Source: an uncultured virus (IMG/VR IMGVR_UViG_3300009034_000021)
Taxonomy: Duplodnaviria > Heunggongvirae > Uroviricota > Caudoviricetes
Direction: 5' to 3' (one strand)
Virus record (IMG/VR): IMGVR_UViG_3300009034_000021
Span: 51,298 to 71,297 of that record
Length of the DNA stretch: 20,000 bases
Of this stretch, positions 3,361-15,193 are shown in pieces. The position numbers and the translations under genes were made by a program. The notes below the pieces were generated by a model. The model did no database searches. It saw only the letters and a list, made by a program, of their open reading frames with translations, and had not been told where the DNA came from. The number at the start of each line of letters is the position of its first letter. Position 1 is the first letter of the stretch.

Positions 3361-4134
3361 TTATTCTTGTTCAGTTTCTCGCTCACACCACAAGCTAACT
3401 CCTCCCTTATCAAACCATTTTACATCCACTACTGTGGTATACTTTTCTTCATATAGACTTTTAAGGTACAAAGCAAATTTGTCAAAAGCAACAACCTCTG
3501 TGAAAATCTGTCTATCCCTGGCCCGTCTTGAGAGCCAGGCTTTTAACTGAGGTTGCCAGTTCCCTATATCGGAATTGCTGTACAATAACATTTCCTTGAA
3601 TGGTATGTGGCAAATTGCTCTTTTGTCGTCGCCAGATTCTTCTACTCGATAGTTTCTTACTATTGCCTTTAATCTTTCAGTTTTGATTATGATTCCAACC
3701 TCGCCCCTGAATTCTTGACCGTCAAGCCAAATTATCCACCAGTCTGATTCTGTAGTAGCGAGACCCGATGGTTTTCCGCTACAACTTATTTCGATAGCCA
3801 ACCTTCCAGTTTTACTAACTTCGTAATCTCGTTTAAATTCATATTTCCCTTTTGGAAAACTTTCGGCCTCTTGGCCATTTAGCAAATCTAAGTCCCATTC
3901 TTTGCCTGTGTCTTTGTGCCCAAAGAGTTCGGCTGTTTTGATTTCTGGCCTTGGTCGGGAATCATAGGCATACTTTAATATTTCTTCTTTAGCTAAAAGG
4001 TTTCGTTCTGTGCCAGGCTCTTTGTCAAGAGAATCAAAAATATACTTGAGCAAGACTAATTTAGCTTTTGAGGAGAGGTCATTAGTCAGTTTCTTGATAG
4101 AGCGAATAGCGACGATTTCAGGAACTTTACTCAA
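3361..4134 (-). CDS. Putative PD-(D/E)xK-fold endonuclease
   Basis: WDLDL...YEFKRD...TGRLAIEISCSGKPSGLATTESDWW matches my recollection of a common phage restriction-like nuclease pattern; overlaps the MTase stop. Confidence 0.6.
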   Translation of the reverse strand: MSKVPEIVAIRSIKKLTNDLSSKAKLVLLKYIFDSLDKEPGTERNLLAKEEILKYAYDSRPRPEIKTAELFGHKDTGKEWDLDLLNGQEAESFPKGKYEFKRDYEVSKTGRLAIEISCSGKPSGLATTESDWWIIWLDGQEFRGEVGIIIKTERLKAIVRNYRVEESGDDKRAICHIPFKEMLLYSNSDIGNWQPQLKAWLSRRARDRQIFTEVVAFDKFALYLKSLYEEKYTTVVDVKWFDKGGVSLWCERETEQE

Positions 4135-5494
4135 TTGATACTCTTTTCATGGTGATAGCGCAAGCCTTAGATTGTAAATCAAAACCAATCCAACTTCTAT
4201 TAGCTTCTATGGCTGCCTCAGCGGTCGTGCCGCTGCCGATAAAAGGGTCACAAACTATACCGTCCGGCGAACACGACGTTACAATTATTCGCTTAATGAG
4301 GTCAAGTGGCAGTTGGTTAGGCCAAGATGTTTTACTTTCGGAAACGTTCTTGACTAAGTTGTATTCCCACCAATCGTATGGGGTTGTTCCCTCTTTGCCC
4401 AGATGCGCAACCCTCTTATCATTGGGATTTTTGTAAGGTTGTAAGTCCGCTTCGCCTTCAAAGAAAGCAGGCTTGTTGCCTCGTATGTAATAAAGAATAG
4501 TTCTATGCGAACGTCGCCAATTATCATTGGTTTGCCCGGTGTTTGACGGGTAGACCCATGAAAGCCAACGCTGGAAAGTGAAAAGTCCGTCGAGTTGCTG
4601 TTTCCACTGTGCTGCTACCTCTGGGTAGTGCATCAGGTAAAACGCACCACCAGGTTTTAGAACGCGGTATGCTCCCCAGAACCAATGCACGCACCAAGAA
4701 AGATATTCGCTTTCTTCTTTTTTGTCCTTGAATCCCTCGCCGTAGTTCTTGCTTAGATTGTATGGTGGGTCAGCGAACACCAAATCAATGCTTGCCTCTG
4801 GCAGACCCATGAATCCTTCGAGGCAATCGACTTGATGAACTTTATTTAGTTCATAGACGCCAAGCGTGGGAATAGGTGGTGTCTTTGACTCGTCACTGGA
4901 AATTTCTTGATTTTCTTCCTCGTCGATTTTTTGTTTTTCTTCTTCGTCACTGTCGGCTTCTGCTTCTTCGGCTTTCTCAGTTTCTTGGATTTCTTTTTTG
5001 GGTCGTTCTATGGTGCGAGGATATTCTCTGCCATCCTTTCCGATAAAGATTTTAACGATTCTAATTTGAAGACGTTCCTCAAGTTTTCTTCTGATTCTTT
5101 TGACTGTATCCTGATGAACTCCTAAATCTACAGAAATCCAGTTATTAGTCCTTTCAAAATGCAGTTTCAGGAATTTTTCTATAACGCCTTGTCTCTCCTT
5201 GCGTGTGAGAGGCAGGCCATGTTTCAAATTGGCAAGCAAAGCGTACTCCTCGGCTTGCTCCAGAGTACCAAACCTGGCTTCAACTTCTATCTCCTCCAAC
5301 TTCAGAATCTCGGCAGCACGATAGCGATGCCAGCCATCTACTAACAAGTAATTACTTTTGTCTGGTATCTTAAAGACTACGATTGGTGGTAGTTGGTCAA
5401 AGCAATCTGCATAACCTTTCGCAATTTCAACATCGGTTTTAGTTCTTGGGCTTAGTTTACTATCTCTTTCAATCTGCTTCAATCTCAGCTTCAT
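4127..5494 (-). CDS. ParB/Srx-HTH fused to beta-class N6A/N4C DNA methyltransferase
   Basis: N-terminal LVDGWHRYRAA (ParB/Srx), HTH-like TNNWISVDLGVHQDTVKRIR, acidic linker; C-terminal IDLVFADPPYN (motif IV) before DPFIGSGTT (motif I). Confidence 0.92.
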   Translation of the reverse strand: MKLRLKQIERDSKLSPRTKTDVEIAKGYADCFDQLPPIVVFKIPDKSNYLLVDGWHRYRAAEILKLEEIEVEARFGTLEQAEEYALLANLKHGLPLTRKERQGVIEKFLKLHFERTNNWISVDLGVHQDTVKRIRRKLEERLQIRIVKIFIGKDGREYPRTIERPKKEIQETEKAEEAEADSDEEEKQKIDEEENQEISSDESKTPPIPTLGVYELNKVHQVDCLEGFMGLPEASIDLVFADPPYNLSKNYGEGFKDKKEESEYLSWCVHWFWGAYRVLKPGGAFYLMHYPEVAAQWKQQLDGLFTFQRWLSWVYPSNTGQTNDNWRRSHRTILYYIRGNKPAFFEGEADLQPYKNPNDKRVAHLGKEGTTPYDWWEYNLVKNVSESKTSWPNQLPLDLIKRIIVTSCSPDGIVCDPFIGSGTTAEAAIEANRSWIGFDLQSKACAITMKRVSIE

Positions 5495-5528
5495 TACAAT
5501 CTCCTAGTCTGTGTTGTGCTTCTCTTAG

Positions 5529-5607
5529 TTAATAGTTAATTAATTAATCACTAGATATATAGTCTTTGGCTCCTATATAATCAGGTTTCTAATTAATTAA
5601 CTATTAA
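5529..5607. repeat. AT-rich perfect 18-bp inverted repeat
   Basis: TTAATAGTTAATTAATTA (5529-5546) / TAATTAATTAACTATTAA (5590-5607), plus inner TATATAG (5556-5562)/CTATATA (5573-5579). Confidence 0.85.
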
Positions 5608-6172
5608 TTAACTTCCAGTAGCCGCGTCTCGCGTTGCCGGAATATCCTTTCCGGCTGGCTATATTTTTCATCAAATTCCAGTCGTCTTCACTGGTCACAA
5701 TGCCTTTGACTTCTGCTGCCTGTCTGATACTGTCCACTTCAACTTCCATGCCGCCGGCCAGTGTATAGCCGATCCAGTCCTCCATAACCTTGCTTTTTGC
5801 TCTGGGTGTGGGTAGCTGAAGCTGATAATTCTCAAGAAAGCTTTCGTGGTCTATCTCGTTTTCTTCACAGAACTGTTTGAATTCTTCTAGGGTGCTTTGT
5901 TCGTAGATGTACTCAAGTTGTCCCTTTTCAATGACTCTGGCTTGCTTCTCCAGCCATTTTCTAGATATTGCAAAAGCTCGTTTATCTATCTTGCCCTCTA
6001 ATTCTTTGGAGTTGGCAAGTAAATTCAAACCCTCCCTGAAGATGCGGTTTATTGCTTTTGTCCTGGAGTCTCCTAGTGCCGCCCAAACTTTGATGAATTT
6101 TTCATCAGTTGCAAGTACTTCTTCTGGGCCGCCTTTGATGTAAGCAGGATAGACACGCAGCATCTCGGCCAT
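5597..6172 (-). CDS. hypothetical protein (191 aa), possible C-terminal winged-helix DNA-binding domain
   Basis: Long ORF with SD AGGAG; C-terminus (VDSIRQAAEVKGI...RRGYWKL) looks wHTH-like by eye only. Confidence 0.75.
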   Translation of the reverse strand: MAEMLRVYPAYIKGGPEEVLATDEKFIKVWAALGDSRTKAINRIFREGLNLLANSKELEGKIDKRAFAISRKWLEKQARVIEKGQLEYIYEQSTLEEFKQFCEENEIDHESFLENYQLQLPTPRAKSKVMEDWIGYTLAGGMEVEVDSIRQAAEVKGIVTSEDDWNLMKNIASRKGYSGNARRGYWKLINS

Positions 6173-6193
6173 ACTAGTCTCCTAAAACGCAAA

Positions 6194-6332
6194 ACGTCTC
6201 TTGGTGACGGCCCCTCCGGTTGGCAAGAAGGGGGCTGGCGAACCCCTGACGAGAAAAGGGGTCGTCACCAAGAGACGTCTTTTAATAAAGTGAGTATTGT
6301 GCTGTGTTATCAATTTGCCAACCTTTCTCGTC
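6194..6332 (-). ncRNA. Three-stem structured leader with loop-to-upstream-target complementarity (C4/CI antisense-like), copy 1
   Basis: 16-bp perfect outer stem (6194-6209/6263-6278); two inner hairpins whose 9-nt loops (UUUCUCGUC, UUGCCAACC) are exactly complementary to the 18-nt target at 6315-6332; followed by UUUUG. Confidence 0.75.
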
Positions 6333-6402
6333 AATCTTATTTATTAAGCAACGGGTGCGCCATTCCCGCCGCCACGGGCCTGGGCCCGCCGAGGTTATTC
6401 TA

Positions 6403-6687
6403 TCACGAATCGCCTATCCTGTCAACCTGGCCGTCATACCCTGAGCTCGCCTGGTCTCTCACGACAATCGGCAGATATATGCTTAATCTCACCGGTGGCA
6501 TCAATGTTCTCACAGGCACAACCGTCACCGGAACCGTAGGCATCGCCGTAGGCCAAACTCTCGTCTCGCCTGTGGGCCAAGTTTTCGTCGGCCAAGGTGT
6601 GGGTTCGTTTGCTAACACATTGCTAAGACCTAAGATACACGTTACAAACGTAATTAACAACAGCAACCTAAATTTCTTACACAGCAT
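6403..6687 (-). CDS. Secreted Pro/Thr-rich protein with IYLPIVVR motif
   Basis: Signal peptide, (P/K)TWPT repeats, Chloroflexota-type YLPxxxR motif. Confidence 0.7.
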   Translation of the reverse strand: MLCKKFRLLLLITFVTCILGLSNVLANEPTPWPTKTWPTGETRVWPTAMPTVPVTVVPVRTLMPPVRLSIYLPIVVRDQASSGYDGQVDRIGDS

Positions 6688-6706
6688 TTTTATCCTCTAC
6701 TTAAAT

Positions 6707-6916
6707 TCAATCTAGTGCAGCCGCTTCGCCGAATTCCTTGACGAATTTCTCTACCATCTTGGTTAGCTCTGCATACGATACATCCTTGCTGTTGCGCGAA
6801 ACAGGAAAGTGAAAGTCCCAATCACAAAATGACGCCAGGATCGCGTTTAGGCTGCCCTTTGCGCGCTCCCATTCCATGTAGCGTGTTGCTAAAATTATCT
6901 GTCTGTTCGTCGTCAT
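6707..6916 (-). CDS. hypothetical protein (start refined to MTTNRQ)
   Basis: SD AAAGGA before ATG 6916. Confidence 0.65.
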   Translation of the reverse strand: MTTNRQIILATRYMEWERAKGSLNAILASFCDWDFHFPVSRNSKDVSYAELTKMVEKFVKEFGEAAALD

Positions 6917-6930
6917 CGTTATTCCTTTGT

Positions 6931-7089
6931 CTAGTCGTCTTCGGACGGTATCGGCCATTCGTGTCCTGCTAAGCTCGCCACTTCAACTCCGCATTCTGGG
7001 CAAACATGCTTAAACACCTTGCCGGTGGTCGAGCTTTCAACAGGATTCATCTTCGTGCCACATTTCGGACAAATCTCGTCTTTAGACAT
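6931..7089 (-). CDS. 52-aa zinc-ribbon protein
   Basis: Manual translation MSKDEICPKCGTKM...HVCPECG...; SD-like GAAAGG. Confidence 0.7.
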   Translation of the reverse strand: MSKDEICPKCGTKMNPVESSTTGKVFKHVCPECGVEVASLAGHEWPIPSEDD

Positions 7090-14969: not shown

Positions 14970-15193
14970 AACACTCCCATCCAGCCTCGTCCATATCCCG
15001 GTCGGTGTCCCACTGCGTATCTCGGCGAGCGGCTGGGAGCAGCCAGTTTCGGTCTATGTATGTTTGGCTCAGTCCGGCTCCCGTGCACGACTCTGCCAGT
15101 GCGTTTTTACAACCTTCGCCCGTTCGCCGCCTCTCCGATTCGCACGGAGCGGTTTACGTGGCTAGCCGGTGAACGAGGCCAGACGGGAATGTT
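14970..15193 (-). ncRNA. ~224-nt intergenic structured RNA
   Basis: 21-bp uninterrupted closing stem with 4 G-U pairs on the minus strand only; nested stems 15077-15086/15142-15150 and 15041-15045/15065-15069. Confidence 0.65.

Follow-up and report, generated by a model that had tools for sequence, protein, structure and literature searches.

A possible antisense attenuator in the leader of orf191 of an uncultured Caudoviricetes virus

The leader ahead of orf191

The virus record IMGVR_UViG_3300009034_000021, an uncultured member of the Caudoviricetes, has 71,298 bp, is rated 100% complete and has a G+C content of 49.7%. The stretch analysed here (the window, 20,000 nucleotides (nt)) is the final 20 kb of the record, and the element under study is the leader lying on its minus strand directly ahead of orf191, an open reading frame (ORF) of 191 amino acids (aa). 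From about 1 to 45 kb, the plus strand of the genome carries structural genes (terminase, portal/head-morphogenesis protein, major head protein, tape measure). A leftward block running from 71 kb to 45.5 kb holds small ORFs and DNA-metabolism genes, and the element sits within this block. The features of the leader are the following, in window coordinates; SD means Shine-Dalgarno sequence and uORF upstream ORF.

6397..6425, minus strand: sigma-70-type promoter TTGACA-17-TAGAAT with a TG extended -10, 11/12 matches
6347..6389, minus strand: two 5' hairpins in predicted folds, 6389-6374 and 6373-6347, the latter with loop AAUGGCGCA at 6364-6356
6315..6332, minus strand: 18-nt target made of two halves (a and b), GACGAGAAA and GGUUGGCAA (whole, GACGAGAAAGGUUGGCAA), read directly
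6279..6314, minus strand: spacer between target and stem, G-poor and A/U/C-rich, with the first uORF codons
6182..6313, minus strand: putative uORF of 44 codons from UUG to UAG, presumably translated, which spans the terminator element and whose stop overlaps the SD of orf191
6194..6278, minus strand: terminator element, composed of outer stem, hairpin 1, linker and hairpin 2
6262-6242, minus strand: hairpin 1, (A)CCCCU and AGGGG(U) around loop UUUCUCGUC (6256-6248), read directly
6241-6234, minus strand: linker UCGCCAGC between the inner hairpins
6233-6211, minus strand: hairpin 2, CCCCUUC and GGAGGGG around loop UUGCCAACC (6226-6218), read directly
6184..6193, minus strand: U-run UUUUGCGUUUU directly 3' of the stem, the probable 3' end of an RNA of ~205 nt
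5597..6172, minus strand: orf191, ATG at 6172, directly 3' of the element and its constant partner gene

The outer stem is formed by ACGUCUCUUGGUGACG (6278-6263) and CGUCACCAAGAGACGU (6209-6194) with 16 Watson-Crick pairs, and further A-U and G-U pairs can lengthen it to 19. Each half of the target has its exact reverse complement in one of the two 9-nt loops, with matches of 10 and 9 nt. Downstream of the U-run follow AGGAG, the SD, and the ATG of orf191. A preliminary description of this DNA had reported the target, the 16-bp stem, the two complementary 9-nt loops and the SD of the 191-aa ORF, and direct reading of the minus strand confirmed all of them.

Homologues of orf191 were found in metagenomes, 13 proteins with 47-84% identity (14 counting the window's own). 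The loci read as DNA were L003, which is near-identical to the window, and L004, L005 and L006, with protein identities of 76%, 55% and 48%, respectively. Counts out of four loci given below refer to the window, L004, L005 and L006, four lineages in all.

The upstream promoter is conserved in all four loci, with 12/12 matches in L004, 9/12 in L005 and 11/12 in L006, and the transcript of the window probably starts near 6390. This promoter lies upstream of the target, therefore the target lies inside the transcript. It is also about 65 nt upstream of the target-overlapping promoter TTGACG-17-GATAAC that had been proposed in the preliminary description; the letters of the latter are present, but a consensus scan made no call there and it is not conserved. 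The internal promoter that was called in the window is TTGGCA-17-AATACT (9/12), which overlaps the b half of the target, and none was called in the relatives. In L006 (2671-2748), two consensus promoters stand back to back in divergent orientation, TTGACA-17-TATACT leftward and TTGACA-17-TAGAAT rightward, with an Amidase_2 lysis-type gene on one side and the leader-orf191-helicase operon on the other.

As in intrinsic terminators, G+C-rich stems of 16-22 bp are followed directly by U-runs in all four loci (UUUUGCGUUUU, CUUUGUGUUUU, UUUUUUUGUG and UUUUUUUGUUU), and stem and U-run are predicted to terminate transcription. The terminator scan made no call at the element because the enclosed part exceeds the 3-8 nt loop limit of the scanner.

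The 5' arm of the outer stem (window 6263-6278, minus strand, also L005 and L006) contains a boxA-like stretch, CGUCUCUUGG, CGCUCUCUUG or GCUCUUUG. It is followed by a GCCCU...AGGGC hairpin, and the opposite 3' arm is SD-like (AAGAGA, AGGAGA). The boxA-like arm with its hairpin resembles the arrangement of the lambda nut sites (boxA, boxB).

Complementarity in related leaders, chance tests and competing folds

All four loci share a common order: strong promoter with TG, 5' hairpin, target, spacer, long stem with two inner helices with C4/G4 arms, U-run and orf191. The gap from the end of the target to the stem is 33-39 nt in each of them. A covariance model (R1) built from the window, L003 and L004 scored L005 at 39.7 and L006 at 33.9 bits, against 7-11 bits for the C4 RNAs of P1, N15 and P4. 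It also scored the opposite strand of the element at 55.5 bits. In the R1 alignment, 131 of 135 cells were standard pairs, and of the 28 pairs 15 changed on both sides, four on one side and nine were invariant; this count leans towards structure because the alignment was fitted to the model.

In the window, the summed loop-target match of 19 was reached by 1/2000 dinucleotide shuffles of the 118-nt leader. The relatives gave the following results.

L005: loop 2 UCUCUUGGUCC with GGACCAAGAGA, 11 nt; 0/2000 shuffles
L006: loop 2 CACUGACUUACC with GGUAAGUCAGUG, 12 nt, and loop 1 UUUCUU with the adjoining AAGAAA; 4/2000 shuffles (longest match), 7/2000 (sum)
L004: UCUCGCC with GGCGAGA and UCAGCC with GGCUGA; 648/2000 shuffles (longest match), 176/2000 (sum), not significant alone

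In L004, a change of the target from GAC to GGC is matched by a change of the loop from GUC to GCC. Loops of one locus match targets of another over at most 5-8 nt. The complementary partners of the relatives vary from 4 to 14 nt and always lie in unpaired parts of the RNA fold. Covariation of loops and targets had been proposed earlier as a check. In L005 and L006 the complementarity stays strong although the sequences are unrelated, and in L004 it is weak. On this comparison of four lineages, the loop-target pairing appears to be supported by evolution. The recognition sequences differ wholly while the scaffold is kept, so the segments may be what confers specificity among related phages. 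P1 and P7 differ in specificity likewise.

A candidate third pairing is found between the loop of the second 5' hairpin and the linker between the inner hairpins. UGGCG(CA) faces (UG)CGCCA in the window and L004, and UGGGC faces GCCCG in L005 and L006, with two pair flips between these clades. In shuffles of this duplex the counts were 4/1000 for L004 (-13.4 kcal/mol), 129/1000 for L005 and 57/1000 for L006, and we regard the contact as tentative.

The 18-nt target has one match at <=3 mismatches in the window, where 0.01 is expected. Each 9-mer has one more exact copy in the 71-kb genome, which is chance level. The element (97 nt) has a folding energy of -51.8 kcal/mol (z -6.6), and none of 200 shuffles folded as well. 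The minimum-energy fold given by ViennaRNA for the window element is a rod and not the junction with two hairpins. The rod joins arm 1, on the 5' side of hairpin 1, to arm 4, on the 3' side of hairpin 2, and a central hairpin with the linker at its tip is made by arms 2 and 3. The two folds compete because the four C-run/G-run (C4/G4) arms are interchangeable. Their energies are as follows.

Window: rod -47.9 kcal/mol, forced junction -46.4 kcal/mol
L004: rod -58.3 kcal/mol, forced pairs of the junction -40.8 kcal/mol, best sampled two-hairpin fold -52.6 kcal/mol
L005: rod -53.6 kcal/mol, forced pairs of the junction -44.6 kcal/mol, best sampled two-hairpin fold -51.4 kcal/mol
L006: rod -54.9 kcal/mol, junction -56.5 kcal/mol

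The best two-hairpin folds are not necessarily the junction described earlier, and the value for L004 comes from suboptimal folds within 9 kcal/mol. For L004 and L005 the forced energies are perhaps too weak, since a better register than the forced one may exist. Both 9-nt recognition segments are unpaired in rod and junction alike. In the intermediate predicted before the 3' arm exists, the target pairs with a loop in three of the four loci, the exception being L004. In a duplex scan with the whole interior of the element, G+C-rich stem arms and the antisense strand swamped everything else, and the scan yielded no information.

Compared with a relative of ~95% identity (run X1), 26 differences are listed in 6000-6600, with none in 6163-6418, 24 in 6419-6545 and two in orf191. 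The leader is thus invariant there and the upstream 94-aa ORF varies, with 9/16 changes at 6478-6545 on third codon positions. Another contig (run X3) shares the promoter and the 5' hairpin only and then diverges. L003 lacks 1 nt of the outer 5' arm and has A in place of G in hairpin 1 (L003 2910 and 2928, equal to window 6264 and 6246). With these changes the hairpin can re-register and the uORF shifts its frame, which is still open past the terminator. The deletion may be a sequencing error.

The element was found in uncultivated phages from sediment and freshwater metagenomes. Blastn of 5500-7000 against phage and plasmid collections gave no match. Of the pattern searches of IMG/VR for more members, one gave 0 matches, one gave seven loci, of which R1 scored L006's own contig alone, and one gave L003's contig alone, as did a search of IMG/VR with the methylase protein. 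A loose IMG/VR pattern gave at least 115 GC-rich stretches, and the motif was present in none of the 25 lowest-energy folds among the 80 fetched. The one match to a species genome, weak and within an unrelated 515-aa ORF of a Pseudomonas genome, was judged spurious. Among the sequencing runs listed for the stretch, none is of RNA.

A possible attenuator and its alternatives

The target includes an SD-like GAAAGG and the spacer before a start codon, UUG (6313-6311). In all four loci it resembles a ribosome-binding site (RBS), with a purine-rich SD-like stretch, 7-10 nt and a start codon (UUG in the window, GUG in L004, AUG in L005, GUG in L006). From this start codon, reading can proceed without a stop across the 5' arm of the stem in all four loci, and in three of them to the far side of the terminator; in the window and L006 neither of the other two frames is open across the element. 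The uORF of L004 has 44 codons, like that of the window, and ends at a UAG overlapping or just preceding the SD of orf191; that of L006 has 66 codons and ends 17 nt inside orf191. We read the target as an RBS because an SD-like stretch, a start codon and an open frame are present in all four loci, and because an identical copy stands before a real ATG.

This copy, AGAAAGGUUGGCAAAU, is identical to the target over 16 nt and lies outside the window at genome 2736-2751 (plus strand, locus L131), directly before the ATG of orf384, a 384-aa ORF (genome 2750-3904) between an RRXRR-HNH endonuclease gene and the large terminase gene. Its blastn-short E value is 5e-4; an equally good repeat was found for 2/400 random 46-nt windows, and the longest string shared among 4371 pairs of gene-start windows is 14 nt. 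Of 311 start windows, that of orf384 gives the best pairing with loop 2 (-14.6 kcal/mol). Homologues of orf384 are often fused to Amidase_2, Peptidase_M23 or PKD/MG2 domains, which hints at an envelope-directed, lysin-like protein. In the 52-kb contig of L006 (G001), whose target is a different one, near-copies of that target directly precede two start codons: CAAGAAAGGGgAAGUCAG followed by AUG stands before a 124-aa ORF with its own promoter, and AGAAAGGUAAGUCA followed by AUG stands before a DUF4314 gene. As second targets these are suggestive only. A near-copy of the target with five mismatches at genome 51040, at a 9-codon ORF, was judged a chance match, and no downstream target site was found in the leader.

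We propose that the element may be an antisense attenuator, at once the leader of a phage early operon and a small-RNA gene, and we give this proposal an even chance of being right. A constitutive strong promoter (6425-6397) would start a transcript carrying, in turn, the 5' hairpins, the RBS and start of the uORF, the spacer and the stem with its U-run. A ribosome on the uORF that trails the polymerase over the 5' arm of the stem would prevent the terminator from forming, and transcription would read through into orf191 and the genes behind it. The stop of the uORF at the SD of orf191 may assist this. If the two segments pair with the RBS of the uORF instead, the uORF would not be translated and the terminator would form. 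This pairing could occur within one molecule, or in trans from previously terminated RNAs that have accumulated. The termination product would be another RNA of ~205 nt, so that shut-off of the operon would be self-reinforcing, and the same RNA could bind the identical RBS of the distant orf384. In L006 the genes upstream of the leader are divergent, so orf191 and the genes behind it should be reachable only by read-through, from which we infer that the element is an attenuator. Of devices in which every part has a use, an attenuator coupled to translation and gated by antisense pairing would be the simplest.

If the coupling to the uORF and the distant RBS copy are both true, this would be a compact system in which an antisense RNA makes transcription depend on a choice taken at translation and coordinates a further gene as well. 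With its conserved scaffold and exchangeable recognition segments of 9-14 nt, the element would then be a natural template for orthogonal synthetic attenuators.

Several points weigh against the antisense attenuator. On paper, the loop-target pairing and the outer stem are not mutually exclusive, and intramolecular pairing could saturate the loops and leave none for action in trans. The uORF of L005 has 20 codons and stops inside hairpin 1, L004 has a second open frame, the 1-nt deletion of L003 changes the uORF frame, and the peptide sequence of the uORF is not conserved. The sites in G001 are marginal, since 24/400 random windows were as good and a control with the loop of the other phage reached -18.1 kcal/mol. 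The second-target genes of the two phages are not homologous, and no shared DUF4314 homologue or other such gene was found between them. The complementarity of L004 is weak (7+6/7 nt) and counts through its position and one compensatory change, loop 1 of L005 has no target, and the comparative support is limited to four lineages. Finally, the junction is the minimum-energy fold in only one of the four loci (L006). The window favours the rod by 1.5 kcal/mol, and L004 and L005 favour it by at least 9 kcal/mol over the forced junction, though this latter margin is perhaps overstated.

A wider version of the proposal, which we hold as possible but doubtful, is an RNA-only timer or exclusion module of a probably virulent phage. 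Its hypervariable segments would clamp the RBS of the uORF and the copied RBS of a distant lysin-like gene, translation of the uORF would serve as the antiterminator, specificity would be set between co-infecting relatives, and the RNA would toggle between two-hairpin and rod folds. If true, a single small RNA would both restrain a late function and, by positive feedback, switch off its own early operon. The preliminary description had proposed a role in immunity or zygotic induction. Such a role is conjectural: the PHROG scan, which covered 69 of 94 ORFs, gave no integrase, repressor or partition ATPase, though with this coverage the phage may still be temperate.

Among explanations of another kind, a purely cis-acting structured leader is unlikely, yet likelier than the others. 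In such a leader, tertiary contacts would set terminator efficiency, RNA stability or the binding of a protein (for example orf191), with no action in trans and no role for the uORF. The complementary partners are all in one transcript within ~140 nt, the pairing of 5' loop and linker changes in step between clades, the predicted folding intermediate pairs the target with a loop in three of four loci, and the leader is invariant in the 95% relative, all of which would suit it. However, a structural contact needs no wholesale replacement of recognition sequences on a scaffold still recognisable enough for R1 to find L005 and L006. It also leaves unexplained the SD and start codon in the target and the 16-nt copy at another RBS, and the loop-linker contact is weak in L005 (129/1000) and L006 (57/1000). 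We consider it very unlikely that the leader is a processive antitermination site of the nut or put type acting on its own polymerase, with or without a phage protein, and making it ignore terminators further on. Lying close downstream of an early promoter, with a long operon to follow, the leader would be suitably placed, and the 5' arm of the outer stem has the boxA-like GCUCUUU or CGCUCUCUU followed by the GCCCU...AGGGC hairpin, comparable to boxA and boxB of lambda. The boxA-like stretch is, however, paired in the 16-bp stem with U-run, the form of a terminator and not a free nut site; the loop-target complementarity and covariation would stay unexplained, and no Rfam antitermination family matched.

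An ordinary intrinsic terminator, with complementarity due to chance or a remnant of duplication, would need nothing beyond the stem and U-run, and the complementarity of L004 is indeed not significant alone. But the shuffles (1/2000 for the window, 0/2000 for L005, 4/2000 for L006), obtained with unrelated sequences at a similar distance from the stem, come close to refuting it, and we think it extremely improbable. An element acting at the DNA level would have the 9-mers as protein-binding half-sites, such as an operator over the internal promoter, or as part of a recombination or replication site, the RNA folds being incidental. The overlap of TTGGCA-17-AATACT (9/12) with the b half and of TTGACG with the a half would agree with this, as would the long inverted repeat, whose opposite strand also scores 55.5 bits. 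It is highly improbable in our judgement: the internal promoter was called in just one of four loci, G-U pairs occur where DNA would mismatch, the U-run is one-sided and in gene direction, and the partners shift in length (4 to 14 nt) while staying in unpaired RNA. Almost no credence can be given to an IS110-type bridge or seek RNA, in which the two loops would guide a recombinase to DNA. The preliminary description had raised this in a more general form, a two-loop guide for a DNA site, for which no support was found. One folded RNA does carry two separate recognition segments, and in L005 an ORF with an IS110-family Transposase_20 domain (674-1444, E 9e-7) lies ~500 nt upstream of the leader. 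No recombinase stands beside the element in the window or L006, however; the constant neighbours are the promoter and orf191, and the site read by the two segments is a single uninterrupted stretch of the sense strand in their own transcript instead of a pair of DNA partners.

Comparison with known RNAs, and the gene neighbourhood

Rfam at gathering scores gave 0 matches over the window. At E <= 10 in 6000-6600 there were three irrelevant sub-threshold matches (COG3610-DE with 27.9 bits on the opposite strand, narK and BjrC174). A comparison with the Rfam C4 model (RF01695) had been proposed earlier, and it turned out negative: no match was found at the element at E <= 10 in 6000-6600, nor in L004-L006 at E <= 1, while the controls P1, N15 and P4 scored 68.8, 78.8 and 74.9 bits (gathering threshold 45 bits). 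The sole RF01695 match in the 71-kb genome (window 15018-15134, plus strand, 15.9 bits, E 0.097) is probably due to chance.

P1 C4, P4 CI and N15 CA had been named as analogues of the element. On reading their loci, the similarity of design logic holds, but the element does not belong to the C4 family. Like C4 RNAs, it is a stem-enclosed RNA with two segments complementary to sites in the same transcript. As in P1 and P7, the RNA comes from the leader of the operon that it would control, one target overlaps an RBS, and an extra upstream copy exists (P1 locus read). P1 c4 reportedly causes transcription termination by way of blocked translation, and the transcriptional control through translational repression by an antisense RNA proposed here has the same logic. 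In C4 RNAs, the RNA is released by a cut of RNase P and has a tRNA-like acceptor stem. The U-run directly after the stem in our element points to termination rather than processing. The recognition boxes are here two equivalent 9-nt loops (or sides of an internal loop), whereas P1, N15 and P4 have one hairpin loop and one junction strand. The C4-type RNAs of these three are separated from an upstream hairpin with U-run, whereas here the RNA itself is the terminator. Further differences from C4 are the contiguous upstream target, the own U-run terminator and the lack of icd or ant genes behind.

N15 CA has the closest layout: promoter, 5' hairpin, two target boxes, terminator-like hairpin with U-run, and RNA. 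Its targets, however, are separated and in the opposite order. N15 CA controls the antirepressor operon of a temperate phage, whereas the phage here shows no lysogeny genes among the 69/94 ORFs scanned. In the plasmids pT181, pIP501 and pAMbeta1, kissing of an antisense loop with its target on the nascent leader decides whether a terminator forms. These systems use antisense RNA from the opposite strand and alternative leader folds, whereas the regulator here would come from the same strand and lie inside the terminator. To our knowledge, self-targeting leader RNAs (P1 C4, P4 CI, N15 CA, IsrK) are known from one related RNA family of enterobacterial temperate elements.

According to PMC4825925, the CI RNA of P4 is encoded in the untranslated leader of the very operon that it shuts off and pairs with seqA and seqC, causing premature termination. 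The logic of our proposal matches P4 CI as well. Both are leader-encoded and pair with an upstream site, and the upstream site in the P4 sequence precedes a hairpin with U-run. In P4, terminator and RNA are separate and a second site lies downstream (seqC), whereas here the terminator is the RNA and there is no downstream site. PMC4825925 also describes IsrK of Gifsy-1, where one promoter gives a short RNA with a Rho-independent terminator and a read-through mRNA, the short IsrK acting in trans on the read-through isoform and altering the translation of a small ORF. IsrK activates translation, whereas repression is proposed here, and the two have no similarity of sequence or model. Our element would reach the self-targeting logic of C4 with a different fold, with regulator and terminator merged in one structure, and it represents a candidate RNA family that Rfam lacks.

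Behind orf191 follow, in order, a gene with ParB-N and N6/N4 methyltransferase domains, a 257-aa ORF (PHROG of unknown function) and a UvrD-type helicase gene.

4127..5494, minus strand: ParB-N with N6/N4 DNA methyltransferase (PF01555, 5.3e-44; ParB_N 0.0011, below its cut-off)

In the preliminary description the element headed a module of ParB-methylase and nuclease. This did not hold, as orf191 is constant and the ParB-methylase is not; the latter adjoins orf191 in the window phage only, whereas in L006 a DEAD_2 helicase gene is next and L005 has an HNH gene followed by a methylase. In the methylase cassette of the window, no gene was identified as a nuclease.

Profile scans gave no Pfam or PHROG family match for orf191. 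Its predicted structure (pLDDT 81.6) had no Foldseek match at E <= 0.001 in PDB and BFVD. The C-terminus shows a weak winged-helix-like resemblance, and the Atlas matches were all below 0.9.

A near-perfect long hairpin, A/U-rich and made of stop-codon-like repeats, straddles the end of orf191 in the window and all three relatives.

Window 5525-5611, minus strand: repeats UAAUUAAUUAG, -27.1 kcal/mol, z -3.5
L005 2748-2832: repeats (UUAG)n, stem of 27 bp, -47.2 kcal/mol, z -7.4
L004 1208-1321: hairpin at the end of orf191
L006 3558-3644: hairpin at the end of orf191

A repeat of 13 nt from the leader, TTGGCAAATTGAT (E 0.031), occurs at genome 45535-45547 (plus strand; locus L133 7535-7547). It adjoins a hairpin with U-run where the rightward and leftward gene blocks converge.

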